Sequence record: OZ346158.1
Strand: one strand, 5' to 3'
Origin: a phage
DNA: 64,000 nucleotides
Shown piece by piece: positions 5,465-55,450 of this stretch. The position numbers and the translations under genes were made by a program. The notes under the pieces are model-generated. The model worked only from the letters and a program-made list of their open reading frames with translations, searched no databases and was not told the origin of the DNA. Position 1 is the first letter of the stretch, and every line of letters starts with the position of its first letter.

Positions 5465-5830
5465 ATGGAACAAATGAACGATCAAGCGTCGGTTGCGATG
5501 AACGAGCAAGAACAACCTCAAGAATTTTTCTTAGGGTTAAGTAAAGATCAAGTGTCTCTTTTGCTAGTGCTTTCTTCTTTCATGGGAAGACTTCAGGAGC
5601 TCACACAACAACCGGAGGCTGAACAATTATTTCAGGCTCTGCGTGAAGAAGAAAAATATCGTCGTTTGGACTATGCCTTAGGTTGGGTAGCTCAACAACG
5701 AGATATGCTGATGGCCCTCTCTGGGACCACAAGTTTTGCAATGGGCCTGTTGGCTCAAGTTCAGGACAAATTAATTCAAGCAGGGTTTGCACACACGGCA
5801 AACACTAACGAAGAACAAGGAGACAAATAA
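5465..5830 (+). CDS. hypothetical protein
   Basis: ORF with SD aatcggagatt. Confidence 0.55.
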   Translation: MEQMNDQASVAMNEQEQPQEFFLGLSKDQVSLLLVLSSFMGRLQELTQQPEAEQLFQALREEEKYRRLDYALGWVAQQRDMLMALSGTTSFAMGLLAQVQDKLIQAGFAHTANTNEEQGDK

Positions 5831-7101
5831 TGAGCGTTATTCAACAATTCGCTAACCCGATGAATCCGCGTGAAACTGTTTTACTGGCTCACGGCATGAT
5901 TAAACGCGTCAGCATCAAGCCTATCAAAGGTGCTGATCCTACAACAGGTATTAAAACCACTGTGTGGCAAGGTAAGAAAATTGAGTCCAGCCACACCATC
6001 TCTTTACTGATTTCTGAACTGGATTCCTCTGATAACCTGCTTCAAGGTGGTGAAGAAGTCTGGATCAGCATGGGTGATAAACTGCTTAAACCGGGTCATC
6101 AAGACTCTGTCTCTGTTAAGATTGATGACAAGTGGGAAACCGTAACGCCAGGATGGATCGTAAATATCCCTTTGAAGGCAAACGAGCATAACGGTAAGAC
6201 CTACTACAAGGGCTCACTGGCTAAGATGGTTAAGCTGGGTGCAGGGGAGGCTCCAGCAGCGACTCAGCAGCAAAAACAGCAACAAGGTGCACAATCACAA
6301 GGCCAGAAGCAGAAACCTCAGCAGAATGCCAATCAGGACGTTTTACGCATCTATGGCGATGTGACTCAGATTGTTGGCAACGTGGTTACTGTTAATGACC
6401 ACAAGATTGGCGAAGGTGCTATGGTTGTCACTGATGAGCAGCTTAAAGACCTGGTGGTAGGTGGTCGTGTTGCAGCCATTGTTGACAAAGACACCGGAAA
6501 CATTATCAGTGGTTTCAAAGCCTACCCACCTAAGGCAGAGAACGGCACTCAAGGCTCTGGTGGCAAGCGTAAATCCTCTTACGACCCTATTGGTGTGGAG
6601 ACGGGACATAGCATCAATGCGTTGCAAATCATCCTGGATCGCGGGTTTAAGGTAGACGACCCACTAGGTGTGGCTAAAACACTGCACGTAGTCACCATTG
6701 AGCTTAAGAAAGAGTATGCTCAAGCCACCAACCGAACTGAAGATGAAGTAGGTGCCAGTGTCGGTAATGCGGTGTTGAACGCTTGTCGCCGTATTGACAA
6801 GAAAACGAAAGTTGATGATTTTGCAGCGGCAATTACTGCAGAAGCAAAAGATGTCTTGACTAATCTGGCTGAGCCGTTGTACGATTGGATCAAGAACGGT
6901 GCTGGGTCCACTGACCATCAAGAACCTCAAGCTGCCAAACAGGAAGCTGCTTCACAGCAAAATACTGTAGACGCTCCTCCTGTAAATGACGAGGAAGATG
7001 ACCCAATGGATCAGAATCCAGCACAGTATGACTTCTGTGATGACATACCTTTCGCTCCGGTGGGTTTGCAATATGGCAAAAGTAGAATCCACGCATTGTA
7101 A
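5830..7101 (+). CDS. putative DNA-binding protein with SSB-type acidic tail motif (DDIPF) and Gln-rich linker
   Basis: Near C-terminus ...YDFCDDIPF as in bacterial SSB tails, but followed by 15 extra residues that overlap the next gene. Confidence 0.45.
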
Positions 7102-7696
7102 GAGGTGCATCAAGTGTGGAGAGGTGAAAAACCTCTCCGAGTTCTACAAACATCCAAAGATGTCTGACGGTCATCTTAATAAGTGCAAAGAGTGTTGCAA
7201 GAAGGCCAGCAGGGAGGCTGACCAATTTTCCCACGACTCTTCAGAAAAAGGTGTGATCCGCGTGTTGTACAAGACTCAAAAGTGCAACAGTAAGAAGAGA
7301 GGTCACCCACCTCCGACTTACACCAAAAAAGAGTTTAAGGAGTGGCTATACCTAAACGGTTACAAAGAGTTGTATGATCAATGGGTAGCCAGCGGATACG
7401 ACAAAAGGAAAAAGCCTTCTTGTGACAGGATAGATGATTTCAAAGGGTACTCTTTTGATAATATCCGTTTAACGACTTGGGGAGAAAATAAAGACAAGCA
7501 GACAGAGGATATTCTGTTACATAGAAGCACCAGCGGTAGACGGTGCAAAAATGTAAGGAGGTTGGACATGAATGGTAACGTTCTTAAAGAATGGGTATCC
7601 CACAATTCTTGCCGAAGAGAAACAGGGATATGTGTTGATTACTACATTCATGAAAAAATTCCAGCTCCCGATGGATACCTCTATGAATACTTCTAA
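7070..7696 (+). CDS. HNH endonuclease with CxxC zinc finger (free-standing)
   Basis: [10 protein letters not shown]...CKECC plus [25 protein letters not shown] core. Confidence 0.75.
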
Positions 7697-7711
7697 CATC
7701 TAGTTAACATA

Positions 7712-7739
7712 GCCCTGCCCGAAAGGGTGGGGCATTTTT
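7712..7739 (+). terminator. putative intrinsic terminator
   Basis: GC hairpin cccgaaaggg followed by TTTTT. Confidence 0.45.
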
Positions 7740-7758
7740 GTATAAGGAGATCTGAAAA

Positions 7759-8175
7759 ATGACATTAGAAGATATCATTGTTAAGCCTGAGAACTATGAC
7801 CAATACAACCTGTCAACTCAATCTGTAGACCTTGGATGCGCCACGGTCAGTGCGTGGCTGGTTAACGGAAAAGAGCTGGATAAATGCTTAGAAGCTCACA
7901 TGTCTATTAACAAGTTTCTGGATGAAAATACTCACTGGCTTGAGGGTGCAGGCGTATATGCTTCATGGTTGGAGAGTATGGGATTCGACTACCAATCTGA
8001 AGAGGGGTGGTGGAGCTATTTAGCTATCTGCCCAGAGACGCTGCAATGCTTCATGAAATATTCTGAAGATTTAGAGTATCGCGCTGTGGTTGACAGTGCT
8101 ATTGCCCGTTATAGCCGTAAACCTTTTTCCCACGACATTAAAACTGTGGAAGAGTTTGTTGAAGTTTTCTGTTGA
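7759..8175 (+). CDS. hypothetical protein
   Basis: ORF with SD aaggagatc. Confidence 0.55.
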   Translation: MTLEDIIVKPENYDQYNLSTQSVDLGCATVSAWLVNGKELDKCLEAHMSINKFLDENTHWLEGAGVYASWLESMGFDYQSEEGWWSYLAICPETLQCFMKYSEDLEYRAVVDSAIARYSRKPFSHDIKTVEEFVEVFC

Positions 8176-8270
8176 CACAGGTTGAAAGGTGTGCAATTAT
8201 AACTTCATAGACGGGAGGACGTGATGAACGAAGAAAACTGGGATGTATAACTAACAGGAGGCCACTGCCC

Positions 8271-8468
8271 ATGATTTATCGAATCCGTGTAAGAGAAGAT
8301 GCACCAGGCTGTTACTTTGACTGGCGTGGGTGGTGGTTTCTCCACCCGATGGATGGACTCACAGATAGAATGCTGGATGCTGCCCTTTATACAGATACCG
8401 ACATAGAATATAATCTCTATCTGAAGGACGGTATAGATAACGGTCTATTTGAAGCAATTCCTGTGTAA
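8271..8468 (+). CDS. hypothetical protein
   Basis: ORF with SD caggaggcc. Confidence 0.5.
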   Translation: MIYRIRVREDAPGCYFDWRGWWFLHPMDGLTDRMLDAALYTDTDIEYNLYLKDGIDNGLFEAIPV

Positions 8469-8536
8469 GAGACTGTGATAGCCATGTTTTATGATCTTCC
8501 TGTAGCACCACCACCTGTTGAACCCGGAGAACTAAG

Positions 8537-8962
8537 ATGATCTATGAAATGCCAAAACTGATTCGTGATGATGCCCAAAACGCTCACACCATTATTATGG
8601 GCAAACGTATGGATATTATTTGTCATAAAGATTTCTGGGAAGGAAGTTACTTCACAGAGTATTTTGGTAAACTGGACAATGGTCTGCTGATCCAGTTCTA
8701 CACCGATGCGGAAAACAACATTCACTGGGAGTTCGAAACTGAAGATATCCATAAACTTTTCACCTTCCTCGGTATTAAGGTCGAGGCCAAGTTTGAAGAA
8801 GGTGAGTGCGACGATTGTGGATTCTATGAGGTAACAGATTTCTACCTTCCAAGTGGTAAAAATCTCTACTACGAAAGCCACTTCGGCAACTCAAATATGC
8901 CACAGGGTTGGGATGAGTTTTTGGAAATTGCAGAAGAGGAGCTGGAATACCGTGATTATTGA
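8537..8962 (+). CDS. hypothetical protein
   Basis: ORF with SD cggagaact. Confidence 0.55.
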   Translation: MIYEMPKLIRDDAQNAHTIIMGKRMDIICHKDFWEGSYFTEYFGKLDNGLLIQFYTDAENNIHWEFETEDIHKLFTFLGIKVEAKFEEGECDDCGFYEVTDFYLPSGKNLYYESHFGNSNMPQGWDEFLEIAEEELEYRDY

Positions 8963-9410
8963 TACTGTAAAGGGAGATCTAATCTCCATTTTCAAGAAAG
9001 GGTCAGGCCACATGATCCACGGTTGTAACTGCTTTCACACAATGGGTGCAGGTATAGCGAAAGATATTGCCCGTGAGTTCCCTCAAGCACTGGCAGCCGA
9101 CAAAGAGACTGCTTATGGTAATCTAGACAAGCTGGGTATGTTTTCTTGTTGGGAGCATTTTGCCAAGGCCAGGGTCGTATATGGAATCAACCTGTATACC
9201 CAGTTCTACCCAGGGCCCAATGCTGAATACTTCTCAATCATGAAAGGTTTTGAGCGAGTCAACGAGGTATTCAAAGGTATGTCATTGCCGTTCTACATTC
9301 CTAAAATCGGATGCGGTATTGGAGGTCTAAAGTGGAAACATGTAGAAGATGTAATTAATCTTGCAACCACAGATATTGATGTGGTTGTAGTAGAGTACAA
9401 AAAGTGTTGA
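8952..9410 (+). CDS. macro domain protein (ADP-ribose binding / ADP-ribosyl hydrolase-like)
   Basis: HGCNCFHTMGAGIAKDI resembles macrodomain N-A-N...G-G-G-V motif; about 150 aa; start codon (GTG 8952 or internal ATG) uncertain. Confidence 0.6.
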   Translation: MIIDTVKGDLISIFKKGSGHMIHGCNCFHTMGAGIAKDIAREFPQALAADKETAYGNLDKLGMFSCWEHFAKARVVYGINLYTQFYPGPNAEYFSIMKGFERVNEVFKGMSLPFYIPKIGCGIGGLKWKHVEDVINLATTDIDVVVVEYKKC

Positions 9411-9661
9411 CGACCATCTTCTGAGGTGATATAGTTTCCACAACAACTAAGAGAGGAGAGCACTGTGGAGACTAAAATCTTAATTCTTGCTGTGGTAGAT
9501 ACAACCGAAGGAGCTATATTCGAATCTGCAGGAGGGTATTTCTACCTACCATACGGAAAAAGAACTTCCGAGCCAAGTAAAGATTCAATCCTCAAAGTGT
9601 TCCCGTGTGCTTTCTGGCTGGAGATTTTGGTATAAGATTGCAGATGATTTGGGAGAGAATT

Positions 9662-9856
9662 ATGAGAAACAAGAAAGAACTTTACTCTGGTGAGTGGATC
9701 AACGATCAACAGGTGGGAGAGGTAACCTGCTTCCGATGTTTTACCAGGTACAATCTTAAAACTGCACCAAAAAGTGTTCCAAAGACTGATGGTTATTATA
9801 TAAAAGAACCTCATTGCCCAAAATGTAAATGCCGATTGTACTGGAGCAATCTGTAA
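9662..9856 (+). CDS. small zinc-ribbon protein
   Basis: CFRCF...CPKCKC cysteine pairs. Confidence 0.45.
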   Translation: MRNKKELYSGEWINDQQVGEVTCFRCFTRYNLKTAPKSVPKTDGYYIKEPHCPKCKCRLYWSNL

Positions 9857-9860
9857 GAGG

Positions 9861-9888
9861 TTGACATCTGAAAACTGCAGTGTATAAT
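9861..9888 (+). promoter_or_regulatory. sigma70-like promoter TTGACA-N16-TATAAT
   Basis: Consensus hexamers read directly. Confidence 0.6.
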
Positions 9889-9919
9889 ATACGCATAAAC
9901 TAACAGAGAGCGATGTATT

Positions 9920-10111
9920 ATGGTAATTTTTAACCGAGATGGTATCATAGTTAGACAGCACCCGTTCCTTGAATACTATCAAATTGAGCAATGGTGCTAC
10001 GGGGATTGCAGTCACTCCTATGGGCAAAGTTGGGGATACCGTACAGTTTTTGAATCCACAGACCTTGACAAAGTAAGACAGAAAGTTTTAGAACTTATTA
10101 ACAACAAGTGA
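9920..10111 (+). CDS. hypothetical protein
   Basis: ORF downstream of promoter. Confidence 0.45.
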   Translation: MVIFNRDGIIVRQHPFLEYYQIEQWCYGDCSHSYGQSWGYRTVFESTDLDKVRQKVLELINNK

Positions 10112-10118
10112 GTATGAT

Positions 10119-10451
10119 ATGGTAACATTAGAAAGACGTAAAGCTATTGCCGCCACACTGGCAGACATCTTTTGGGATTGTAATTTAAAATCTACCCGAA
10201 ATTGTGGCGCATCTGTAGATGTATTATTCCCACGGCCTACTATTGTTGCAATGGGCAACCTTCTTGATGTGGTATATGGAGCATGGGACAAGGAAGGTGG
10301 ATTCTATATCTGGCAACCTGACTACGGGACTTGGAAAGAGGTTAGTGGTTCTACGGACTTCACTCCTGCAGTGGCTAAAATGGATGGCTGGAAAATCTAT
10401 GTCGGTAACGACATGGAACTGAAAGGCGAAATTGTTTACTGGTTACCTTAA
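10119..10451 (+). CDS. hypothetical protein
   Basis: ORF. Confidence 0.5.
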   Translation: MVTLERRKAIAATLADIFWDCNLKSTRNCGASVDVLFPRPTIVAMGNLLDVVYGAWDKEGGFYIWQPDYGTWKEVSGSTDFTPAVAKMDGWKIYVGNDMELKGEIVYWLP

Positions 10452-10471
10452 GAAAGTGCAGGAGATAAAGT

Positions 10472-10717
10472 ATGAACAAAGGGTGGACATTTGTAGACGG
10501 CGTTGAAAACATGCCTCTAGGAAAGTATATTGTAGCCATGGCAGATGAGAATGGCAAGGTTGATTTCGGAGCTTGCGAGATTGTTCTTGCAGGATCTGGT
10601 GACCATGTGCACAAAACTGGGATAATTAACGGTCATTTCTACTTTGATTACAACCCTGTTGTGGCGTATATGGCTATGCCAGAGTTAGAGCTCCCAAAGG
10701 AGGGTGCAGATGTTTAA
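10472..10717 (+). CDS. hypothetical protein
   Basis: ORF with SD gcaggagat. Confidence 0.5.
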   Translation: MNKGWTFVDGVENMPLGKYIVAMADENGKVDFGACEIVLAGSGDHVHKTGIINGHFYFDYNPVVAYMAMPELELPKEGADV

Positions 10718-30699: not shown

Positions 30700-31749
30700 T
30701 TAAGCTTCTTCGACAATTCCTGCACCCAGGATTTTTTCATTGAGCTCTTTTGCTGTTTTAATAATATTGTCCACCAGACGCTTGCGAGTCTTATCTTTCA
30801 CCTTAACCTCTTCACCGCCGTTCAGAGTAGTCTTCAATTGAGACAGAATATCCTGAAGTTCAACGACAGAGAATCTCTGCAGATCTTCTGAAGTAATCTC
30901 ACTCAGGGCAATTCTGACGGTCTCGCCACTTTCCATCTGCAGATTCAGGAACACAGTGTGAACATCACCTTTCGAACCACCCGCTTTTGCAGATTCAACA
31001 GCATGAACTAACTCATCTAAAGATGTGCACTGGTGAATCTCCGGAAGACCTGCTTCACCTAACACGCCTTCTTCATCACCTTTTGCCAGAAGCTTTTTCG
31101 GTTTTTGTCCGTTCTGGATGCGTTGTATGTTGCCTTCATCCAGAATAATAGCTCCAGTGCGTGCTGCCAGCTCTTCTCCGTCCAACCACACTTCGCCACC
31201 AGCTGTGATGGATGCGATCTCATCTTCTGTCAGCACCCCACCGTAGTATTTTTCGATCAGGCGTTCAAAACGTTTTTTCCAGTAGCTGACCTGAGTATTC
31301 ATGTTCACACCGTTACCATAAGTGCCACCTTGATAGTAGTGGAACATAAACTCTGTGTCCGGAGCCACAGTACGTTCTTTACAACCAAGCCATAAGATTG
31401 TTCCAGCAGAGCAGCACATCCCTTCAGCATGTGCAACAACGCTTGCCTGAGACTCTCGGAATGCCTGCAGATAAGCCATTGCAATGTGCACGCAACCCCC
31501 AGGACTATTGATGATCACCCGAATGCTTTCTTCCGGCTGAGCCATACGGATCGTCTGCAGACGAGACATATGATCTTGTAAGTCTTCCAAATCGTCGATA
31601 TAAAGAACGTGGTCAACAACAGGTGTTGGGTAGCTGTATGTTTCCATGATACCGCCCGGCATACCGAACATTTTATTACTCATAGGTTCGAAACCGTTCT
31701 GTTTTTCTTTCATGCCGTGTACCATGGTTCTGCGAGGTGTTAAATTCAT
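30700..31749 (-). CDS. ClpP-like serine protease (S14 family) with C-terminal extension
   Basis: INSPGG...GMCCSAGTILWLG active-site serine context; about 130 aa extra C-terminal region; terminator hairpin 30661-30700. Confidence 0.65.
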   Translation of the reverse strand: MNLTPRRTMVHGMKEKQNGFEPMSNKMFGMPGGIMETYSYPTPVVDHVLYIDDLEDLQDHMSRLQTIRMAQPEESIRVIINSPGGCVHIAMAYLQAFRESQASVVAHAEGMCCSAGTILWLGCKERTVAPDTEFMFHYYQGGTYGNGVNMNTQVSYWKKRFERLIEKYYGGVLTEDEIASITAGGEVWLDGEELAARTGAIILDEGNIQRIQNGQKPKKLLAKGDEEGVLGEAGLPEIHQCTSLDELVHAVESAKAGGSKGDVHTVFLNLQMESGETVRIALSEITSEDLQRFSVVELQDILSQLKTTLNGGEEVKVKDKTRKRLVDNIIKTAKELNEKILGAGIVEEA

Positions 31750-31809
31750 GAGAAATCCTTAATATTGGAAGTTGAAAGCTATTTATTTAAACCTGATTCA
31801 CATTTACCT

Positions 31810-32121
31810 TTATTTAGCAATCACTATGGAATACTTACGATTGTCAGAAGCATCACAACTCAATGATTGCCAGTCTACCACATACCACGTATCATTGTCA
31901 ACAATTACTTTATCGCCTGTTCTGTAGCAAGTGCTGCTTTCAATAATTCGAGACTCGATAAAGAATCTGTGTCGGCGCTCACGTAGCAACGCTAAGTTAA
32001 TTATATTACCACCGCTGTCCTTGGTCCACACATTCTTGGATCCCTTATTTGCCAAAATTGTCTCGCCGTTATAGACAAACAGGCAGTATATTTTATTCAG
32101 TTTCTCTTGTATTGTAGCCAT
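31810..32121 (-). CDS. hypothetical protein
   Basis: ORF. Confidence 0.5.
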   Translation of the reverse strand: MATIQEKLNKIYCLFVYNGETILANKGSKNVWTKDSGGNIINLALLRERRHRFFIESRIIESSTCYRTGDKVIVDNDTWYVVDWQSLSCDASDNRKYSIVIAK

Positions 32122-32222
32122 ACTGTCCTTCTCTCTGTTTTGTCCGATAATAATATCTAAAGCTTACCTATTTGTCAACAACTGTTTTAGATATTTAAGG
32201 GTGGAATAACCACCCTTCTGTA

Positions 32223-33011
32223 TTACTCGGAAACAGGGGTCCAAATATGATTTGCACGATCCTCAATAAGATTGAGTGCGATCTGACGACCCAACCCAGA
32301 ACGAACGACATCGTCTGGACTATCAAAGCTGATCATTCCAACCTCAGGATCTGGATGACGAGTAAAGAAATCCGTCACCCATGCAAGGCCAGATTTACCA
32401 GGGATGTCACGTTGGCTATTATCACCCATAATTACAAGGGTGGCTTGATCAGAGATCCTTGTGATAATTGACAACATTTCTTCAGGGTTAGTTTGCTGTG
32501 CCTCGTCAATCAGGACAAAGCATCGCTCATCGAAACTACGACCACGAATGCTTTCAACTTCACAAATCTCGATACGGCTGTTCTGACCGTCTCCCAGCAT
32601 TGCGGCAAAAGCACCTTTGCCAACACGACGACAAATCGTGTCCATCATGCTTCGAAGATAGGGCCACAGTTTCTGCATTGCATTTCCAGGTTTAAATCCT
32701 GAAGTCTTTCCTGTCTGAACGTAAGGACGTGCAACAATAATCTTATCAATCTCGTTCTTACGCAGAAGATCACCTGCATATGCAGATGCCATGAATGTCT
32801 TACCGGATCCAAACACACCGTTTACAATAATAATCTTACGTGACCCTAGATAATCAAGATACTTTTGCTGCTTCTTATTCATTGGTCGGAGAGCTGGAGC
32901 GGTGTGCTCTCTTTCGTCAGCAAATTTCTCAGCAGCCTTACGCAGGCGATCAGATTTGCGAGCCTCTCTAGCTTCATCACGCATGCGTTTTGTTTCTTTA
33001 GCTCGACCCAT
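32223..33011 (-). CDS. phoH: PhoH-like ATPase
   Basis: Walker A GVFGSGKTFMA, Walker B-like VLIDEAQ, PhoH architecture. Confidence 0.85.
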   Translation of the reverse strand: MGRAKETKRMRDEAREARKSDRLRKAAEKFADEREHTAPALRPMNKKQQKYLDYLGSRKIIIVNGVFGSGKTFMASAYAGDLLRKNEIDKIIVARPYVQTGKTSGFKPGNAMQKLWPYLRSMMDTICRRVGKGAFAAMLGDGQNSRIEICEVESIRGRSFDERCFVLIDEAQQTNPEEMLSIITRISDQATLVIMGDNSQRDIPGKSGLAWVTDFFTRHPDPEVGMISFDSPDDVVRSGLGRQIALNLIEDRANHIWTPVSE

Positions 33012-34222: not shown

Positions 34223-35467
34223 TCAGCAACCACAACTTCCGTAGTGCTTAACTCGCTCGATAACTTCCGCTTGCTTACCTTTATTGTAAGGACGGGAGTT
34301 AGGACTGGAAAGGTATCCAGACACACGTCGAATTACACTGATCGTTCCCTCTTCATGGTTTCCACACTCTGGGCATACAAAGCCTTTAGCTGTTGCACTG
34401 AACTCACCAGAGAAACCACACTTGAGACATTTATCCACAGGTTGGTTAATACCAAAATACATAATGTGTTTATACCCGAAGTCAACAAGAGCCTCTAAAG
34501 CATCCAGGTTGTTTTTCAGGTTAGGTGTTTCTACGTATCCGATGTTGCCACCAGAGGAGATCATAGCAAAACCTTCCTCATACTCCCACTTATCAAAAGG
34601 AGAGCTATTTATCCATACTGGCTGATGGAAACTGTTGGTGAGATATTCATGCTCGTGCTTCAACACTTCCGGATATTCACGATCCAGACAGGTTGCAGCT
34701 TTATAGCATAGACTCTCAGAAGGAGTGCCGTACAAGCTAAATGCTAGTCTACTTTCCTTCTTGTATCGCTCACAAGCATCTCTCATGTGCTGAAGGATTC
34801 CAAGAGCTAAAGCCTTGTCACCCTCTCTGCCCAAAATCTGACAGGTTTCATACACACCGATATACCCAATACTGATGGAAGCGTACCCGTCATAGAAGAG
34901 TTTATCAATACTCTCTTCAGGATCCAGGCGAGCAAGAGCGCCTTCACACCACATGATGGGGTTCTGCCCTGCCTTTGTTCCTTTTAGACGATTAACCCTT
35001 ACAAGGTGAGCCTCGTATGCAAGATCCAAGTATTCGTCAAGAACTGCAAAGAAATCAACACCTTCCGTCTTGGCTTTTGCCGCAATCATTGGCAGGTTAA
35101 GGCTAACAACGCCTAAGTTAAATCTGCCAAGGTATTTCTCCTCGCCTGTTTCCAAGTCATTGTATTTGCTAAGAAAACTCCTGCAACCCATGCTAGTTAC
35201 TTTGCCATCTGTCGAGCCTGTCACTTTTCTATTTAGTGGTACAGATACGAAGTCAGGATAGATACGTTCTGCACAGCATTCCAGAGCTAATCGTTTCAAA
35301 TCATAGTTAGGATCCCCAGGGTTCATGTTGACACCCTCTTCCAGGAAGAACAGCACTTTAGGGAACACAGGTGTGATACGTTCTTCACCAAGACCCATTT
35401 TGTGGACTTTCAGGTAGTTTTTGGTAATCATTCTACCAAAGACCGAGGTATCCAGTCCTAAACTCAA
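34223..35467 (-). CDS. nrdD: anaerobic ribonucleoside-triphosphate reductase, C-terminal exon
   Basis: C-terminal CxxC...CPECG zinc site and glycyl-radical motif RRVSGYL; exact 5' exon boundary not determined. Confidence 0.8.
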   Translation of the reverse strand: MSLGLDTSVFGRMITKNYLKVHKMGLGEERITPVFPKVLFFLEEGVNMNPGDPNYDLKRLALECCAERIYPDFVSVPLNRKVTGSTDGKVTSMGCRSFLSKYNDLETGEEKYLGRFNLGVVSLNLPMIAAKAKTEGVDFFAVLDEYLDLAYEAHLVRVNRLKGTKAGQNPIMWCEGALARLDPEESIDKLFYDGYASISIGYIGVYETCQILGREGDKALALGILQHMRDACERYKKESRLAFSLYGTPSESLCYKAATCLDREYPEVLKHEHEYLTNSFHQPVWINSSPFDKWEYEEGFAMISSGGNIGYVETPNLKNNLDALEALVDFGYKHIMYFGINQPVDKCLKCGFSGEFSATAKGFVCPECGNHEEGTISVIRRVSGYLSSPNSRPYNKGKQAEVIERVKHYGSCGC

Positions 35468-36282
35468 TGTGATGAATGGAGTCTGCTGTCTCCTCCCTGT
35501 GTTTCCACAGGGCCAGACTATCTCTTACTCTACTTCAATAAGATAATAACCCTTTATTGTGAGATGCTTACCTTCGGCATTTCCTTCGATAGCCCTATGA
35601 ACGTTACCTACGTTCAAATTTAAGGCTTTTGCACAGGCATAGAGTGAAGGATATTCACCAACCAAGGTTTTACCTTTGTATGCCTGCACTTTCCTATAGC
35701 ACTTACCTGGACAAAGTCCTGTTCGGAAAGCATGTCTCTTATTATCTTCCGGCAAAACCCACTCTAGGTTAGACGGATGATCATTCAATGTATTGCCATC
35801 TTTATGATTCACTTCCCAGTTTTCAGGGTCTACTGGGACATCTGGCAAACAATACAAGGCAACAACCCTTGAGGTTTGGATTCGAATCTTTTTGCCTTTG
35901 TGGTTGAAAGAGTACATATAACGGCGTTTAACATGCTTGTTACCTTTTCCATAACCTCCCCACAATATTGGGTGTAGCATTCCACGTTTTCCGTATACGT
36001 TTCCAACCTCATCAATCACATAGTTTGATTCTTCACCATTAAGAATGATCTTTTTCATAGAGCCTCTCCATTTCGAAGTTAGTATTTCAACTAACCCCTA
36101 CACTACTTGGTTCAGAAATGTTTGTCAAGCATCTCTGCCTTTCGTTAGTCGTTACAACCGTTCCAACTCCTGTAAGAACTAGTCACGGGATTGGCATAGC
36201 TTTCGCCTTAGCGTTCCCCGTTAGCCGGATTTACCGACCCCTCTTATGAGGTTAGGAGAGTTTTACAACGGCCAGTTTGTTA
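35468..36282 (-). mobile_element. Group I intron in nrdD (approximate bounds) carrying HNH endonuclease
   Basis: nrdD split into N- and C-terminal ORFs flanking an HNH ORF; S-like element agatagtctgg on - strand near 35480. Confidence 0.65.
35525..36058 (-). CDS. HNH homing endonuclease, intron-encoded
   Basis: NWEVNHKDGNTLNDHPSNLEWV HNH core. Confidence 0.85.
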   Translation of the reverse strand: MKKIILNGEESNYVIDEVGNVYGKRGMLHPILWGGYGKGNKHVKRRYMYSFNHKGKKIRIQTSRVVALYCLPDVPVDPENWEVNHKDGNTLNDHPSNLEWVLPEDNKRHAFRTGLCPGKCYRKVQAYKGKTLVGEYPSLYACAKALNLNVGNVHRAIEGNAEGKHLTIKGYYLIEVE

Positions 36283-37143
36283 ACCGTTGACAGAAGTTAA
36301 CGTATTGATTTGATAGAGCAAAGTCTGCATGCTGTCAAATACGTCTTTATCTGTCATTTGCATTGCAACAGTCTCAGCATCTGGCAACCAATGTTCCTGG
36401 CAAAATTTAAGGTTCTTCTCATAGGTCGCTTCAGCATACTGTGCCAGATAATGATCAATATGGCTCATAGTCTGACCACCATATTGAGCACTAGCTACCG
36501 CACTAGAGATTTGGCTAAGGATTGTTGTTGCAACCCCTATTGACTTCGGCTTACTGACATGGGCGTTACCAATGTTGAATCCGTTTTCCAACATATCTGG
36601 ATAATTTACCAAACAACAGTTTGTTAACGGACTGATCAAGTAGTCAAGATCATGCACATGGATGAATCCTTTATTGTGCTCTTCGGAGACACGGTCTGGC
36701 AGGATCTGTGTTGATGCAAGGTGTTTGCTAAGAATACCTGCAAGCAGGTCGCGATGAGTGTGTACATGATTAGTAGGCTTATTTGCGTTTTCTTTTGTAA
36801 ATTCATCACAAGTTCGATCCAAGAAGCCACTAATATCTGCAAGCAGTTTTCCACCTGCCTCTCTGTTATTATCTCTTGTCTGTCTATACTGGATGTATTC
36901 TCTGGCTGCACATTTTAAACCCATATCCATAAGAGCATCTTCAACAAGGATATGGATATTTTTTACAGAGATCGTGCACTGGTCGGTTGGTAGATTGTTA
37001 GCAACAACTTCATTAACCGCGCAGGCGATCCGGTAAGCTTCTTCTTCAGTATGTCCAGACTCAAGTAAGGCGGACTCTGCCGCCTTGATCACCTTAATTC
37101 CGTTATAGAACTCTTCTCTACCGTCCCGTTTTACAACTTTCAC
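36280..37143 (-). CDS. nrdD: anaerobic ribonucleoside-triphosphate reductase, N-terminal exon (ATP cone)
   Basis: ATP-cone start MKVVKRDGREEFYNGIKVIKA; ORF terminates at intron border. Confidence 0.8.
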   Translation of the reverse strand: MKVVKRDGREEFYNGIKVIKAAESALLESGHTEEEAYRIACAVNEVVANNLPTDQCTISVKNIHILVEDALMDMGLKCAAREYIQYRQTRDNNREAGGKLLADISGFLDRTCDEFTKENANKPTNHVHTHRDLLAGILSKHLASTQILPDRVSEEHNKGFIHVHDLDYLISPLTNCCLVNYPDMLENGFNIGNAHVSKPKSIGVATTILSQISSAVASAQYGGQTMSHIDHYLAQYAEATYEKNLKFCQEHWLPDAETVAMQMTDKDVFDSMQTLLYQINTLTSVNG

Positions 37144-37421: not shown

Positions 37422-38510
37422 TTAAAACTCCCAAATTTCTTCTTCAGCGTCGTTAACAGTTGTGTTGACGCGGTAGTCAGTGTTCGACATTTCTTGGTTC
37501 GCCGTCTGTTGTAATGAAGGTTTCATCCACACCTGCATAAACGGTAGCGGGTCCTTTGTTGGCGGCACAAAGTCTTTGTCGATGTCGTAGTAATCATAAA
37601 TCGGTGAGCAGTTATAGTCAACCCACTCTTTAAGCAACGGTGAGTTAAGACCTATAATCGCTCTTCCTTCGCTGAAAATATAGTCACTCCAACCGTACTC
37701 TTTGGTTCGTACTTCATCAAGAATCTCTTTTAACTCCCCCTTTATCTCAAGGAAGCTTTTCTCCCATGCGGGATCATTAAGCAAGATATCAATGATGGCA
37801 AAATCACCTTTCGAATGTAGCATTTCGTCAAGCATGATTTTTTGAACAAGCTGCGCCACCTGAACAAAGATACCCTGTTCAGCTACTGCGAAAGTGCATG
37901 CAAAACTTGCAATAAACTCAATACTTTCCAGAGCTAAAAGCGCAAAAAGCGCTCTAAGAATGCATTTCCGCACAATATCTTCTTCAACACTAGAAGGATC
38001 CAGGCGGTATTTTGCACCAATAACCTCAAGCTCTTGCATGTATTTGACAATAACGCCGGATCTGCTCAGAACGTTTTGGTTTTCCTGAATCTCTTCTATA
38101 ATCTCACGGGCATTGGGGAGGCATTGTCTAACAATCTCTGAGTAAGTTAGTGCGTGAAGAACTTCAATCTCTGACTGTTTCATCAATAGAGTGAAAAGCT
38201 CACTATTAGTGATGAATGGTGAAAAGAGGCAGATGATCGATCTTGCCGCAACGCTATCAGCCTCCCATTGCCACATCAAGGTCTGCACCATCACGTCATA
38301 AGTTGACTTTGAGCATGTTACAAAATCTGAAATAGATTGCGACAAATCCACTTCATCCTCTGCCCAATCTTGCTCTTTTTGTTTTTTGTATAGTTCAAAC
38401 AGTTGTGGATATTTTTTGTTGATAGAGTCGTACATACCCATTTGCTGTCCCAGAAACAGCGGATAGTCACCAGTTTTATGAGCGGTGTTCTCAGCATTAA
38501 ATACAGCCAT
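37422..38510 (-). CDS. nrdB: ribonucleotide reductase class Ia small subunit
   Basis: About 360 aa immediately downstream of nrdA; start taken at MAVFNAEN with SD agagg; a GC hairpin lies between nrdA stop and this start. Confidence 0.75.
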   Translation of the reverse strand: MAVFNAENTAHKTGDYPLFLGQQMGMYDSINKKYPQLFELYKKQKEQDWAEDEVDLSQSISDFVTCSKSTYDVMVQTLMWQWEADSVAARSIICLFSPFITNSELFTLLMKQSEIEVLHALTYSEIVRQCLPNAREIIEEIQENQNVLSRSGVIVKYMQELEVIGAKYRLDPSSVEEDIVRKCILRALFALLALESIEFIASFACTFAVAEQGIFVQVAQLVQKIMLDEMLHSKGDFAIIDILLNDPAWEKSFLEIKGELKEILDEVRTKEYGWSDYIFSEGRAIIGLNSPLLKEWVDYNCSPIYDYYDIDKDFVPPTKDPLPFMQVWMKPSLQQTANQEMSNTDYRVNTTVNDAEEEIWEF

Positions 38511-38548
38511 TATTCTACCTCTAAAATGGGGCCGAAGCCCCTTTAAAA

Positions 38549-40864
38549 TTATAGTGCACAGCTTTCGCAATACGGATCTTCAACTGAACTATCTGCAATC
38601 AAAGGATAGTTCTTTCTGGTTTCATCTTCAGCCTGTTTCTTGGCATGAAGTTCCTCTGCCAAGGAGTCACCAGCACCAACCCTAGAGTTTAAATAATACC
38701 ATGTCTTCATCCCGAATTTAGTGGCACGGATAAGGTACCCTAACTGCTCCTTCATTGAAATTTTACCATCTTTCAACTTGGTGTAGTCTATGTATAAATC
38801 CGCGCTGATTGCCTGACCTGTGAATTTTTGAATCACGGCATACATATCGATCATGTCGTTAGTATCAACGTCCCAAGCCGAGGTATAATACTCTTTCAAC
38901 TCATCATAGTCAGGAACGATAAACAGCACCTGCCCTTGTGGCGACTTTTTAAAGATAATGTGCTCACGGACAGGATAAACCCCGTTAGTGGTGTTTGTTG
39001 CCAGCGAAGAGCTTTCATTAGGCATATATGCTTCAAGAACGCTATTACGTAGCCCACCATTCTCAATGATTTCTTTACGTAACCCTTCCCAATCCTGTTT
39101 AAGAGAAGGATCTTTCACCACGCTATCGACCTCTTTGTTATAGGTGTCGATTGGTAACCAACCTTCTGGATATTTTGTTTTATGCATCCACTCGCAGACA
39201 CCACGCTCTTTTGCCAACCGTAAACTTGCCTTATGCAAGCTGTAGCTGTGAAGTTCTGCAAGATCGTGAACGAGCTGTTTACTTTCAGGAGACCCGTAAG
39301 TAACCTTGTGGCTGGCAATAAAATGTGCAACATTGGTAAGGCCAACCCCGATGGATCTGCGTTTTTTAACTGTGCTTTCCATATTTTCATACGGATATGT
39401 CATGATTTCCATAACATTGTCAATCATAAGCACCGTATAGTATGCAACATCCTCATACTCCTCTGGAGTAACCCTCCCAGCTACAAGAGATGACAGGAAG
39501 CACAATGCAACCTCTCCATCATCAGCATCGTACTTGAAGATATTACGCATATCTGAATAGCCTTTTGTCGGGAGGGCTATTTCTGCACACAGGTTGCTTG
39601 AATAGATCACATCTTTAAAAGGTGTATGTCTATTCATCTCATCTGTCCAGTATACGTACAGCCTTCCCACCTCAGTGCGCTGCGTGATCAGTTCAACAGC
39701 AAGATCTCTAGCTCGGATCCATGTTTTAGGAATACTGTCATCTTTAGCAATACGATCAACCTCTGCATCAAACTCCTCCATAGACATGGTGAAGATACCC
39801 TCATGCAGTTGAGGCGCGTGCTTATAAGAAACAAGCATCCAATCTAAATTCTTAGCCACACGGTTGATAAACGACCTATTAATACCGATGGAGTAGTCCA
39901 TGGTGTTGATTCTTTTTGAAGCAACAGTCATAGGGTTTCTCAAACGGATTAGCTCATCAATCTGCGGGTCCAGTGCAAGGAATGATACTGTTGCAGAACC
40001 ACCACGTGATTGTTGTCTGTTCTCCTTAACCCCAGCATCAATACCTCGATAATATGGAATCTTACCCATATGTTTAATAGTGTTACCACGAACACCATCG
40101 CCTGCAGATCTTGAGGATAAGTAGTAGCCGATACCTGCTTGGTTAACCGTCATTGTGTACGCAACTTCACGTGCCACACCAATAGATTTTGCTGTATCGT
40201 CAGCTTTTATTACACAACAAGATGCATACCCTGTCTTACCTGTGCGCAGCCCGTTTAAGTACGGTGTTGGGGCATTGATCTTTAAGTCGGACAGATAAGT
40301 GTATAATTTTACAACATCGTTGATACGACGTTCTTTCGGCATATTCTTCATGACAGCCATTGCTATCCCCATAAACATCATCTGGGGAGATTCAAACAAG
40401 GTGTCTTTAAGAGTATCCTTGATCCCGTATTTGTCGCGAAACTGTTTAAGGACTGCATAGCCATAACCGAGATCTTTACTGTGGTCAATAACAGCGTCTA
40501 AAGTGTTTAGCTCGGTAAAGCTATAACCCATATCCTCCCAATAACCTTTCTCAACCATGTCATTGTAAAATGATGGTAAGGAAGGGATCTTTGTAAACCC
40601 TCCAAAAGCCTCTTTATAGATCTGACCAATAAGAACACGACCAGCCATACGGGAATGTGCTTCGTCTTTACGGCTAACACAAGAGTCTATAATAGCTTGG
40701 TTAACTTCTTTGGTTGTACATCCATCATACAACCGCTTGTAGGCATCCAGTGCAATATGTGACCAATTGCCGTTACCATCGTCACCGAAAATAGCTGCCT
40801 TATTTAAACGTTCTGGATCGAATGCCACTTCACATCCGTTGCTTTTAATTACCTTGGTGATCAA
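38549..40864 (-). CDS. nrdA: ribonucleotide reductase class Ia large subunit
   Basis: ATP cone at N-terminus, active-site SSNLCAEIALP, 771 aa. Confidence 0.9.
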   Translation of the reverse strand: MITKVIKSNGCEVAFDPERLNKAAIFGDDGNGNWSHIALDAYKRLYDGCTTKEVNQAIIDSCVSRKDEAHSRMAGRVLIGQIYKEAFGGFTKIPSLPSFYNDMVEKGYWEDMGYSFTELNTLDAVIDHSKDLGYGYAVLKQFRDKYGIKDTLKDTLFESPQMMFMGIAMAVMKNMPKERRINDVVKLYTYLSDLKINAPTPYLNGLRTGKTGYASCCVIKADDTAKSIGVAREVAYTMTVNQAGIGYYLSSRSAGDGVRGNTIKHMGKIPYYRGIDAGVKENRQQSRGGSATVSFLALDPQIDELIRLRNPMTVASKRINTMDYSIGINRSFINRVAKNLDWMLVSYKHAPQLHEGIFTMSMEEFDAEVDRIAKDDSIPKTWIRARDLAVELITQRTEVGRLYVYWTDEMNRHTPFKDVIYSSNLCAEIALPTKGYSDMRNIFKYDADDGEVALCFLSSLVAGRVTPEEYEDVAYYTVLMIDNVMEIMTYPYENMESTVKKRRSIGVGLTNVAHFIASHKVTYGSPESKQLVHDLAELHSYSLHKASLRLAKERGVCEWMHKTKYPEGWLPIDTYNKEVDSVVKDPSLKQDWEGLRKEIIENGGLRNSVLEAYMPNESSSLATNTTNGVYPVREHIIFKKSPQGQVLFIVPDYDELKEYYTSAWDVDTNDMIDMYAVIQKFTGQAISADLYIDYTKLKDGKISMKEQLGYLIRATKFGMKTWYYLNSRVGAGDSLAEELHAKKQAEDETRKNYPLIADSSVEDPYCESCAL

Positions 40865-41169
40865 TTTGCTTCCTCCACTTCACTAACGTATTTATCAAGG
40901 CAGGTATCAGTATCTTGCTGGATAAAAGTATCCTCTTCTACAGAGATATTTATAATTTTACCTGTATACTCGTCATAATAGACATCATCATACATTTTAA
41001 TATCGTTTGTCAGGCCATTGAACCAAAGCCAACCAACATACTCTGCCCGACTTGCAAAACCAAGATCCTTCCACTTGGAGTTATGACTCATCTTCACCAC
41101 CTTAGCTTTCAATACCGAATAATTTTTCCAGGCGATGCAGATCTTCAAAATTGAAAGGTTCATCAACAA
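40861..41169 (-). CDS. hypothetical protein
   Basis: ORF. Confidence 0.45.
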   Translation of the reverse strand: MLMNLSILKICIAWKNYSVLKAKVVKMSHNSKWKDLGFASRAEYVGWLWFNGLTNDIKMYDDVYYDEYTGKIINISVEEDTFIQQDTDTCLDKYVSEVEEAN

Positions 41170-41602
41170 TATGAATATCTTCAGCCTTTTCAGATTGTTT
41201 TGTATACTTTCTTACATTAACACGATCCTCTACGGGGATATCATACGGGAGATCTTGAACAAGCATTGCCTCACCAGGTGCTTTATCTACATCTAAAATA
41301 TCTACACCGTTATACATTTGTGGGTATCTAAAGTCTGCACGCATGACACCAGCAAATACATCTGCCTTTCGATAATGTGTTGGCTTATTTTTGCATCGAA
41401 CGTTTTTTCCACGAAGAACATCAATACTTTTTAAATCAAACCCTACGGCAAAGAGTGCAGCTCGGAGACCGTTTCGTGTGCGAACGTTAAACCCGGGGAC
41501 GGTAGATAGAAAATCTAAAGTAACTGAAATAAATGTCTTTTTAGGAATCATAACATTACTCATATCTGTCTCCATTTCTGGCTCACCAACAAAGTGAGCC
41601 AT
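41102..41602 (-). CDS. hypothetical protein
   Basis: ORF. Confidence 0.5.
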   Translation of the reverse strand: MAHFVGEPEMETDMSNVMIPKKTFISVTLDFLSTVPGFNVRTRNGLRAALFAVGFDLKSIDVLRGKNVRCKNKPTHYRKADVFAGVMRADFRYPQMYNGVDILDVDKAPGEAMLVQDLPYDIPVEDRVNVRKYTKQSEKAEDIHIVDEPFNFEDLHRLEKLFGIES

Positions 41603-41661
41603 TATTATAGATTATCTAATACTATTAGTCAACACAAAAGTTACCTATCGCTGTGATAGGA

Positions 41662-42645
41662 TTAACCTTTCACGAAGTGGTTATTAAGCAGTTGTCTGTG
41701 CTGAACCCACCCACAAAAGTTGGCAGACCAGAATTTACCATCACGGTCTTGATGGGTTACACCTTCCTGCCAAGTACTGATGTCTTGTGTGATTTCACAT
41801 GAAGACAGGTAGTAGTTTAAACGTTCCATTGCGTTATCGTGATCCATAGGTGTTGCCTGGTGCTCGTAAGGGCTTGCATGAATACGATCCCCACCAATCA
41901 ATTTTTTAGCCACACTATCTGCCTTTTCAAACGTGCTGTCAATATTTCGATAAGATACTTGTGCACAGCAACTAGCACTGATAGACAGAGCTTCTTTAGT
42001 ATCGAGAATGCAGAGCTTTCCTTCTGTGTCACGTACAGCGTAGTTAAACTCTCCGTCCAAATAAACGTGCTCTACATATGGGGTGTGCCATTGACCCGGT
42101 TTAAGGATTTCAGGAGTGCTATTCTCAAGAGCCTCCCACATACAATTAGCTAACATCTGAATCGTAGGATCCGCATCGTGCCAGCAACGGAGGTGGAAAA
42201 AATTATTCCACTCGGTGCTTGTTACAACTGTTTTCATGCGCTGGAACGGCTCCACTAAGCGGTTACATACTTGCTTATGGTAACCAGCAAGGGCGAACTT
42301 CTCTGCATGCCAAGCGGCGTTTTTTGCAGCTTCTTTCCAAAACTCTTCAGGAGTTAGCTCCATGTCAGTGTACTCTACACGGATCTTTTGATCGTGTTCC
42401 CCACCATCTTCCATTCCTCGCTTATTTACACCGAAGCGAACTGGCATTGCCGGATTCTCCACAATCTGTTGCAGCATCTTGCCGACAGGTACTGCACGGG
42501 AAGACATGGCGTTTCGGCTGAACACTCGGTGCGTCATAAGCTCTGAGTGAATAATTCGAGGATACTCTAGTTCAAAAGTGGTGATACGCTTACCTTTCTC
42601 GGAAATGCTGTCAGCAATAATCTTTGCAGTGCACAGTTTTAGCAT
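41662..42645 (-). CDS. thyX: flavin-dependent thymidylate synthase
   Basis: ThyX signature HRVFSRNAMSSRA (RHR..S..N..S.R pattern). Confidence 0.7.
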   Translation of the reverse strand: MLKLCTAKIIADSISEKGKRITTFELEYPRIIHSELMTHRVFSRNAMSSRAVPVGKMLQQIVENPAMPVRFGVNKRGMEDGGEHDQKIRVEYTDMELTPEEFWKEAAKNAAWHAEKFALAGYHKQVCNRLVEPFQRMKTVVTSTEWNNFFHLRCWHDADPTIQMLANCMWEALENSTPEILKPGQWHTPYVEHVYLDGEFNYAVRDTEGKLCILDTKEALSISASCCAQVSYRNIDSTFEKADSVAKKLIGGDRIHASPYEHQATPMDHDNAMERLNYYLSSCEITQDISTWQEGVTHQDRDGKFWSANFCGWVQHRQLLNNHFVKG

Positions 42646-42845
42646 TATTTAGCTCTCCTTGTTTTAATTTTGGAAATTTCGTCTGGGTTTATGTTGGCCT
42701 TAAATGCAAGGTATCTGTTGAACATGTCAGAGCACATATCTTGGGTGATCCTAGAGGCATACACTAGCTTACCTCCTAGATCATACACCTCTAGCCAGTC
42801 ACCGTATCTGACTACAGGATCGCCACCTTTAGAACATCTGCCCAT
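42645..42845 (-). CDS. hypothetical protein
   Basis: ORF. Confidence 0.45.
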   Translation of the reverse strand: MGRCSKGGDPVVRYGDWLEVYDLGGKLVYASRITQDMCSDMFNRYLAFKANINPDEISKIKTRRAK

Positions 42846-42846
42846 T

Positions 42847-43440
42847 TCAAATACCTTCTAAAAATTTTCCTATTTTATACCAGCTATTAGCGGTATAGTC
42901 AACACTGACCTTTAACTCCTCGAATTGCTCATAAGGCGTATCTTTTAGGATTTTAATAACTTCAGGTCGTGAAGCGAATTGGTTCAGGTATTCATGCCTG
43001 TCGTCAATTATAACATCTACAGCCACATTCCCTTTGAAATGTGTGGCGTAGAAGCCGTGGCCCTGGGTGTGATCGTCCAGATCCATAAAATCACTGGTCC
43101 AACGCTTTAAGAACCTTGATTTAGATGCAAGGTGACCTTTCTTGCATACCGAGATAAATGCAAGCTTGTGACCACGAGCCACCAAATCTTTCATAACCTC
43201 AATAGCCCCCTCTTCAGGCTTAAGGAAGTCGTAGAGGAACGGATCACTCCAGAAATCAAAAGGTCCTATGATGTTTTCTTTGGGACGATCAGGCCAATAC
43301 TTTGACAGATCGTAATACATTAGCCCATTAGAAGGTTTAGCTACTGTCTTACTGGCTGGACCATACAAACGCTCCAACCACTCCCACCATGCTGTTCCTG
43401 AATCTACCAGTGTCAGATCTACATCAATTCCGATTAACAT
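42847..43440 (-). CDS. HAD-superfamily 5'-nucleotidase (deoxyribonucleotidase-like)
   Basis: N-terminal DVDLT (DxDxT) HAD motif I. Confidence 0.6.
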   Translation of the reverse strand: MLIGIDVDLTLVDSGTAWWEWLERLYGPASKTVAKPSNGLMYYDLSKYWPDRPKENIIGPFDFWSDPFLYDFLKPEEGAIEVMKDLVARGHKLAFISVCKKGHLASKSRFLKRWTSDFMDLDDHTQGHGFYATHFKGNVAVDVIIDDRHEYLNQFASRPEVIKILKDTPYEQFEELKVSVDYTANSWYKIGKFLEGI

Positions 43441-44048
43441 TCTTCTTGGGCCTCTTTAGCATCAATATACTTGCACACAATCTCCGATGCACACTCCCAA
43501 GGTGCACCTTCAGGGTTTACAACATCAAACTCAACCCCTTTTATTCCGTTCTTTTCCAGACTTAGATAGGTTCTGGAATCATTTCCCCAGTCATATCCTA
43601 CACGGTGAATACGGAACAACAACAGATCTCCACCTGTGCTGTATGCGTACTCGCTAAGGCATGCCAGCTCCTCTTTGAATCCCCCATCGGAGTAAACAAT
43701 AACCCCTTTACCTTCAGGGAAATCTTTCTTCAAAGATGCGACTGCGGCTTTACCGAAAGCATCTTCACCAAAGATAGGTTTAATCAGATTTTCACTACAA
43801 TGGATCATCCATTCTCGCGGAGAAACATGCTTGCCGTCTATCATTAAGAAAGGGCAAGGCTCTTCTTTGTAGTGGCGGTCATAAAGTGCATTCCAGAGTT
43901 GAGGAGTTACACCAGCTGCCTTAATTGCCACACTGAAGAGCATTTCCTTAACCTCACGGTGGTGTGAGTTAGGAATAGCTTCCAACAAGAGATCTGCAAT
44001 GTGATCCTTACCACTGCTGGGTGGGGCGTTAAGAACAATAATATCCAT
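43434..44048 (-). CDS. P-loop nucleotide kinase (dNMP kinase-like)
   Basis: N-terminal P-loop NAPPSSGKD. Confidence 0.55.
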   Translation of the reverse strand: MDIIVLNAPPSSGKDHIADLLLEAIPNSHHREVKEMLFSVAIKAAGVTPQLWNALYDRHYKEEPCPFLMIDGKHVSPREWMIHCSENLIKPIFGEDAFGKAAVASLKKDFPEGKGVIVYSDGGFKEELACLSEYAYSTGGDLLLFRIHRVGYDWGNDSRTYLSLEKNGIKGVEFDVVNPEGAPWECASEIVCKYIDAKEAQEEC

Positions 44049-54667: not shown

Positions 54668-54680
54668 TAAAGGTCTCCTT

Positions 54681-55442: not shown

Positions 55443-55450
55443 AAGTGTCC

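Follow-up and report, generated by a model that had tools for sequence, protein, structure and literature searches.

The DarTG2 toxin ADP-ribosylates thymidine in DNA, and bacteriophage T4 carries a gene, tk.4, that protects it: according to a preprint of November 2025 (Humolli et al., bioRxiv 10.1101/2025.11.20.689424), tk.4 was the single hit on DarTG2 in HIDEN-SEQ, a transposon-sequencing screen, a clean tk.4 knockout sensitised T4 to DarTG2, and Tk.4 was renamed AdfM, for anti-DarT factor Macrodomain. DarTG1, which modifies guanosine, is neutralised by NADAR proteins (AdfN), and these are inactive against DarTG2. A chimallivirus AdfM, PhiKZ gp104, is independently described in a 2026 article (Cell Rep, PMC13309987) as a macrodomain that removes DarT2-made ADP-ribose (ADPr) from DNA in vitro. 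Among cellular macrodomains, the hydrolase SCO6735 cleaves thymidine-linked ADPr from DNA and can save cells from DarT; the Q85A substitution inactivates it and N27S nearly does, and the mechanism proposed is water-mediated, with the Gln positioning the distal ribose (PMC9411070). Here we describe a stand-alone macrodomain gene at positions 8952-9410 of a 64,000-nucleotide (nt) stretch of phage DNA from sequence record OZ346158.1 (hereafter the window), and we weigh the possibility that its product, a relative of T4 Tk.4, erases DarT2 marks from phage DNA.

The macrodomain gene and its fold class

The open reading frame (ORF) lies on the plus strand and, by the ORF table and its translation, ends with the stop codon at 9408-9410. 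Read from the GTG at 8952, the predicted 152-amino acid (aa) protein opens MIIDTVKGDL (start of translation: MIIDTVKGDLISIFKKGSGHMIHGCNCFHTMGAGIAKDI), and a motif quoted in an earlier note on this DNA, HGCNCFHTMGAGIAKDI, corresponds to residues 23-39 (nt 9018-9068). The mechanical longest ORF begins at 8853, with an extension that is not conserved among homologues, and the GenBank record of PMBT16 starts the gene at ATG 8913 (165 aa), again with an extension that is not conserved. We consider GTG 8952 the most probable start, because the N-termini and lengths of homologues agree with it (homologue P0001 has 152 aa, and T4 Tk.4 begins MIVKYIKGD), because a Shine-Dalgarno-like sequence is present, and because it falls inside the upstream ORF 8537-8962 (stop 8960-8962), giving an 11-nt overlap. 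This start/stop overlap also suggests that the two genes may be translationally coupled. The ORF and the motif described in the earlier note are thus confirmed, and the start fits the homologues.

That note had further read the protein as a macrodomain, and this reading is borne out by both a profile hidden Markov model search and structure prediction. The signal stands clearly above what chance would give: the match to Pfam PF01661 (Macro; E 1.4e-5) covers profile positions 1-117 of 118, its 25.5 bits exceeding the gathering score of 22, and the match to PHROG 335 has an E value of 2.5e-59. An AlphaFold2 (AF2) model from 60 homologues (mean predicted local distance difference test score 96.1, predicted template modelling [TM] score 0.90) displays the three-layer alpha/beta/alpha macro fold, which superimposes on solved macrodomains. 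Foldseek against the PDB returned 173 chains at E<=1e-3; macrodomains, together with hydrolases designed on related scaffolds, fill the first 25 places. More specifically, the leading matches (probability 1.0, TM ~0.70-0.77) were TARG1 (4j5r), the DarG proteins of T. aquaticus (5m31) and M. tuberculosis (5m3i), Poa1p, BT1257 and SCO6735, with viral nsP3 and macroH2A macrodomains ranking lower. Consistently, phmmer against PDB sequences matched SCO6735, BT1257, TARG1, DarG and Poa1p, and the family profile recovered BT1257, SCO6735, TARG1 and DarG at 1e-13 to 1e-15; the best NCBIfam match was the macrodomain part of the antitoxin DarG (5e-12), and the best PADLOC match was likewise DarG (1e-12). 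Since the nearest neighbours in sequence and in structure are all TARG1, DarG, Poa1p, SCO6735 or BT1257, the protein is a macrodomain of the ALC1-like (TARG1/DarG/Poa1p) class, not of the MacroD, PARG or viral nsP3 types.

T4 Tk.4, the gene of which adjoins vs in the annotated T4 locus, aligns with the window protein over its full length (39% identity, 66% positives, query 1-150 on subject 1-152, E 1e-43), and the tk.4 product of Acinetobacter phage 133 superimposes on the AF2 model with a TM score of 0.89. We assign the protein to the T4 Tk.4/AdfM sequence family, homologues of which were found by tblastn in 2825 of 50,697 phage records, mostly of T4-like phages. The family is large, with 4572 representatives at 50% identity for E<=1e-3 and 1411 for E<=1e-10.

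Similar domains also occur outside phages. In BFVD, the best viral structural match to the AF2 model (of 8952-9407) was the macrodomain of a Marseillevirus 'SNF2 subfamily protein' (TM 0.93, 40% identity), an ALC1-like macro-SNF2 fusion of a giant eukaryotic virus, the domain of which is closely similar to the phage Tk.4 type. The chromosome of Pelagimonas phthalicica encodes a 41%-identical Tk.4-type macrodomain (L006 6001-6459, homologue P0057) on a 1.6-Mb contig, between housekeeping-looking genes; no DarT neighbour was found among the flanking genes checked. This copy is therefore an orphan, and cellular orphan copies of the family defined below by its active-site Gln exist in bacteria.

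The Gln/Asn active site and the proposed function

Alignments place three conserved stretches of the protein around the ADP-ribose site (see Table 1). In alignments with M. tuberculosis DarG and with TARG1, Q84 (nt 9201-9203) falls where these proteins have their catalytic Lys (DarG K80, in FPTK; TARG1 K84, in ITKK), a place taken in SCO6735 by the essential Gln85, and N26 (nt 9027-9029) aligns with N22 of DarG and N27 of SCO6735. In the profile alignment, the SCO6735-type Gln/Asn pair (Q85/N27) is thus matched by Q84/N26, and N26 is predicted to adjoin Q84 in the active site. Both residues were invariant in 60/60 diverse homologues, as were G24, C27, M31 and G34 in the N-terminal loop, N80, Y82 and T83 next to the Gln, and P117, G120 and G122 in the diphosphate-binding loop, where TARG1 Asp125 is replaced by Gly124. 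Among 249 retrieved homologues, 231 carry N-x-[YFHW]-T-Q and 227 combine HGCNC...MGAG with N-x-Y-T-Q; NLYTQF is identical in T4 Tk.4. The protein probably uses SCO6735-like catalysis and not the mechanism of DarG/TARG1.

Fold and class, the homology to T4 Tk.4 and the Gln/Asn pattern together make one explanation the best, to which we give a probability of roughly 60%: the gene would encode a stand-alone, orphan-antitoxin-like ADP-ribosyl glycohydrolase that strips DarT2 marks from thymidines of phage single-stranded DNA (ssDNA), using a Gln/Asn active site. Upon infection of DarTG2-carrying E. coli, the DarT2 toxin would ADP-ribosylate thymidines of single-stranded phage DNA and thereby block replication; the cleft of the phage macrodomain would then bind the ADP-ribose moiety, and the ribose-thymine bond would be hydrolysed, releasing ADP-ribose and restoring the thymine base. 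For this cleavage, Gln84, held by Asn26, would position the distal ribose for attack mediated by water, with no lysine nucleophile involved. The relevant target should be DarTG2 (thymidine) specifically, rather than DarTG1, given that the latter is countered by NADAR proteins. The suggestion of the earlier note that the protein is an ADP-ribosylation eraser plausibly countering DarT-type toxins hence gains support from the fold class, the best matches to DarG and the homology to T4 Tk.4/AdfM, and it agrees with what the preprint reports on the T4 homologue (bioRxiv 10.1101/2025.11.20.689424).

Several points weigh against this explanation. Identity to T4 Tk.4 is just 39%, and the anti-DarTG2 role of the Vequintavirus protein (the phage type is considered below) would follow from homology. 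The T4 evidence is genetic and comes from a preprint, and the biochemistry stems from SCO6735 (PMC9411070) and PhiKZ AdfM (PMC13309987), not from a Gln-type phage enzyme. We found no published DarTG2 test on Vequintavirinae; in the accessible part of the preprint, the Bas54 transposon library was applied to clinical isolates, with follow-up on a system named DS-28 rather than on DarTG2 (bioRxiv 10.1101/2025.11.20.689424). By phmmer, similarity to Poa1p is about as strong as similarity to DarG. TARG1-class enzymes also act on proteins, O-acetyl-ADP-ribose and uracil-linked ADPr on RNA, and given such promiscuity the physiological substrate could be something other than ADPr-thymidine DNA. Finally, Val25 of SCO6735 is an invariant Gly24 in the window protein, and the loop past Q84 (FYPGPNAEY) is shorter and without Lys; in SCO6735, Val25 and a Lys-rich loop have been proposed to aid DNA binding, Val25 doing so via its backbone (PMC9411070). 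Because that residue acts through the backbone, we regard the Val25-to-Gly24 difference as not decisive for the mechanism.

If substrates other than DNA are allowed for, the protein might be an eraser acting on ADP-ribosylated host or phage proteins or on RNA (uracil- or phosphate-linked ADPr), either countering another defence or toxin based on an ADP-ribosyltransferase (ART) or resetting ADP-ribosylation in infection. SCO6735 and TARG1 do also de-modify proteins (PMC9411070) and hydrolyse uracil-linked ADPr on RNA, and the very large family, together with bacterial orphans that have no DarT neighbour, suggests uses beyond one toxin family. However, no phage ART or NADAR gene was found among ~30 larger window ORFs (which comprise nucleotide-metabolism, ligase, ClpP, PhoH and HNH genes), nor any other ADP-ribosylation gene among the ~40 window ORFs scanned, in scans that were not exhaustive for the window or the genome. 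SCO6735 is, moreover, inactive on 2'-OH RNA ADPr and, according to the Results of the paper, on 5'-phosphate ADPr, whereas the Discussion of the same paper has it active on RNA phosphate ends (PMC9411070), and in the T4 screen tk.4 came up under the DarTG2 condition specifically (bioRxiv 10.1101/2025.11.20.689424). We therefore consider action on such other targets fairly unlikely. A wider version, in which Gln-type phage macrodomains are broad-spectrum, lysine-independent, water-mediated erasers that act on thymine in DNA plus uracil in RNA and/or proteins, confer immunity to several ART-based defences and might also block DarT2 physically as dead SCO6735 does, is a fairly long shot as well. 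Physical blocking without any catalysis, with the protein soaking up an immune signal derived from ADP-ribose or inhibiting DarT stoichiometrically, would be in keeping with the absence of the nucleophilic Lys (and Asp) found in TARG1/DarG and with the finding that catalytically dead SCO6735 Q85A still inhibits DarT through interaction (PMC9411070). Such a binder is highly improbable in view of the invariant catalytic loop: Q84, N26 and the entire loop are kept as for an enzyme, hydrolysis by SCO6735 needs the same Gln/Asn pair (PMC9411070), and binding of cyclic ADPR-type signals is not in evidence for macrodomains of this class.

It is also unlikely, in our estimate, that the protein works on small molecules of NAD metabolism, as a Poa1p-like ADP-ribose-1''-phosphate phosphatase and/or an O-acetyl-ADP-ribose deacetylase that clears away what RNA repair or the phage Sir2 enzyme leaves behind. 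The resemblance to yeast Poa1p is real: phmmer gives E 2e-5 to 7e-5, and the HxCNC...GxGIA motif is almost the same. Of the Poa1p residues probed by mutation, the alignment has H23 kept (His in 58/60 homologues), S30 replaced by Thr30 and F152 by Gly124 (Gly/Ala across the family), the first two points being in favour of this reading and the third against it. PHROG 335, RefSeq and the T4 record do carry the label 'phosphatase' or 'A1pp phosphatase motif', but these names were transferred and do not come from tests. The same phage encodes a Sir2 protein, a cREC cyclic-phosphate-processing domain and an Rnl1-type RNA ligase, yet these genes lie on the opposite strand, 45 kb off. Sir2 homologues were found in 1023 phage records, mostly T5-like (records of ~100-120 kb), as opposed to the mostly T4-like 2825 records with macrodomain homologues, so that the two genes are not co-inherited. 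Rnl1/Pnk-type repair is not known to yield ADP-ribose-1''-2''-cyclic phosphate. The sole known phenotype of a family member, T4 tk.4, is DarTG2 sensitivity. The earlier note had also pointed to the Sir2 enzyme as a possible source of related NAD-derived products; the Sir2 gene is indeed there, but a functional link to the macrodomain was rejected as unsupported, in that location (45 kb away), strand (minus), module (that of the RNA ligase) and phage distribution all differ.

A macrodomain here is largely an expected finding, as the label already stands in some public records and the role of the family was reported in 2025-2026. If the anti-DarTG2 eraser is what the gene encodes, rV5-like phages, broad in host range and candidates for therapy against E. 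coli, already possess an enzyme with which to withstand DarTG2; the gene would help to predict which hosts are open to them, and a second major E. coli phage lineage would join the AdfM family.

Genomic setting and other genes of the window

Escherichia phage JeffSchatz matches the region at 99.6% identity, and >=80% of the region is covered by 116 records; we assign the source to Vequintavirus, as an rV5-like E. coli phage. The macrodomain gene is kept in at least 116 Vequintavirus records, where its GenBank labels vary ('Macro domain protein', 'Poa1p-like family protein', 'phosphatase' or hypothetical). Between 16 and 25 'Campylobacter phage' records (e.g., MG065659 C5 and MG065653 C14) share 96-100% identity with the E. 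coli Vequintavirus described here over 7700-10500 and 54684-55442, and are probably mislabelled or contaminant assemblies.

The gene sits within a long series of small plus-strand ORFs, downstream of DNA polymerase, a putative single-stranded DNA-binding protein (SSB), an endonuclease VII/HNH-like insertion and a terminator-like hairpin. A search for a functional partner among the six flanking ORFs gave no Pfam match, and every PHROG hit was to a group of unknown function. A consensus scan counted 22 sigma-70-like promoters in the region versus 12.9 +/- 3.5 in shuffles, an enrichment that makes it plausible that the region is early and transcribed by host RNA polymerase, the 'early operon' of the earlier note. 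Multiple promoter-like sites are located between its small ORFs, including a good match immediately past the macrodomain stop codon (9407-9435) and, ~450 nt downstream of the gene, a perfect sigma-70 consensus on the plus strand (9861-9888, TTGACA-16-TATAAT, 12/12). Upstream, the endonuclease VII/HNH-like ORF (6986-7696, plus strand; PHROG 1035, 2e-41) begins before the putative SSB gene (5830-7101) has ended; since PMBT16 and slur16 annotate this ORF and JLBYU08 does not, it could represent a mobile homing-endonuclease insertion.

On the minus strand, the compact module that contains the Sir2 gene looks like an RNA-repair/NAD-linked unit, as judged from its gene content. An auxiliary metabolism block (30700-33011 and 37422-44048, minus strand) encodes a ClpP-like protease, PhoH, the large and small subunits of class I ribonucleotide reductase, a ThyX-like protein and an NT5C-type deoxynucleotidase. 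Between these two parts, the gene for NrdD (anaerobic ribonucleotide reductase) is split into two ORFs within 34223-37143 (minus strand), with a further ORF in between, an arrangement that suggests an intron or a homing-endonuclease insertion.

Table 1. Coordinates of the macrodomain gene, its motifs and other features of the window
Feature	Position	Strand	Evidence
Stand-alone macrodomain gene (Tk.4/AdfM-type), 152 aa, GTG start, TGA stop	8952..9410	+	ORF, Pfam Macro, PHROG 335, AF2, Foldseek, T4 Tk.4 homology
Shine-Dalgarno-like GAGGAG, 10 nt 5' of GTG 8952	8936..8941	+	Read from sequence
ADP-ribose-binding/catalytic loop, N-terminal, H23-G-C-N26-C-F-H-T-M-G-A-G-I-A	9018..9068	+	Alignments to DarG, SCO6735, Poa1p
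N80-L-Y82-T83-Q84 motif	9189..9203	+	Alignments to DarG, TARG1, SCO6735
Diphosphate-binding loop P117-K-I-G-C-G-I-G-G-L-K-W128, aligned to TARG1 P118-RIGCGLDRLQW	9300..9335	+	Alignments
Strong intrinsic-terminator-like hairpin (9 bp, 7 GC, T-run), closes upstream unit	7712..7733	+	Consensus scan; context
Sigma-70-like promoter TTGACA-17-AATTAT with TG, candidate for plus-strand run including the macrodomain gene	8172..8200	+	Consensus scan; context, not functional evidence
NrdD part: NRDD 163-562 and glycyl radical domain	34223-35467	-	
177-aa ORF between NrdD parts	35525-36058	-	
NrdD part: ATP-cone and NRDD profile positions 1-154	36280-37143	-	
Four-ORF compact module	53954-56733	-	Profile searches
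'Nucleotide pyrophosphohydrolase'-like ORF, PHROG 671	53954-54667	-	
Sir2 gene	54681-55442	-	PF02146, 7e-28
cREC_REC 'cyclic-phosphate processing receiver' domain protein	55451-55831	-	
Rnl1-type RNA ligase	55798-56733	-	

Comparison with known macrodomains

T4 Tk.4 is likewise a stand-alone phage macrodomain of ~152-155 aa that is homologous over its full length, shares the motifs HGCNCFHTMG and NLYTQF(x)PGPN, including the Gln at the position of the catalytic Lys, and is translationally coupled to an unrelated upstream gene. The two differ in phage group (Tevenvirinae versus Vequintavirinae), in neighbourhood (vs / tk.4 / tk.3 in T4) and in 61% of their residues, and the anti-DarTG2 phenotype has been demonstrated for T4 only.

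Among cellular proteins, SCO6735 (PDB 5E3B) and BT1257 of Bacteroides (2FG1/2AFC) are top or near-top PDB sequence matches and resemble the window protein in being ALC1-like: a Gln stands where other members have the catalytic Lys, the Asn that supports it is there, and so is a GCG(L/I)(A/G)GG loop. SCO6735 also provides orphan protection against DarT with no cognate toxin (PMC9411070). In contrast, their identity to the window protein is just ~23-26%, the loop lysines K89/K94 of SCO6735, implicated in DNA binding, are absent from the window protein, and SCO6735 is a cellular, DNA-damage-induced protein of Streptomyces coelicolor rather than the product of a phage gene.

The macrodomain of DarG2 (T. 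aquaticus 5M31/5M3E, M. tuberculosis 5M3I) shares the fold class (TM ~0.76), the conserved Asn (N22) and presumably the substrate, ADPr-thymidine in ssDNA, whereas its catalytic Lys80 is replaced by Gln84 (LYTQ aligned on FPTK of DarG). Membership of DarG itself was considered and rejected: the NCBIfam NF048014 match reaches 45.7 bits versus a curated equivalog cut-off of 250 and covers profile positions 2-144 of 338 only, the catalytic Lys and the C-terminal DarT-binding domain are missing (the protein ends after the macrodomain), and there is no adjacent darT, the neighbouring ORFs having no Pfam match and belonging to PHROGs of unknown function. Human TARG1/OARD1 and yeast Poa1p, both top structural matches, share the N-terminal HxCxx...MGAGIA and the PxIGCG motifs. 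TARG1 differs in having a Lys84/Asp125 dyad where the window protein has Gln84/Gly124, and Poa1p is a small-molecule ADP-ribose-1''-phosphate phosphatase, with F152 at the position of Gly124.

PhiKZ gp104 is, like the window protein, a phage-encoded single macrodomain, reported to counter DarTG2 and, as a point of difference, to be imported into the phage nucleus (PMC13309987). It is of the Lys type (N23/K78, FPTK versus LYTQ), its pairwise alignment with the window protein shows no more than 21% identity (E 8e-4), and it is probably an independent acquisition; with this identity and with no Lys of the N23/K78 type, the window protein was rejected as a member of the chimallivirus AdfM type. 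New relative to the AdfM reports, the available texts of which leave the Gln unmentioned, is that T4-type AdfM carries the SCO6735-type Gln/Asn pair and chimallivirus AdfM the DarG-type Lys. Besides a possibly wider range of substrates, this contrast suggests that phages recruited thymidine-ADP-ribose erasers at least two times, from different branches of the macrodomain class.

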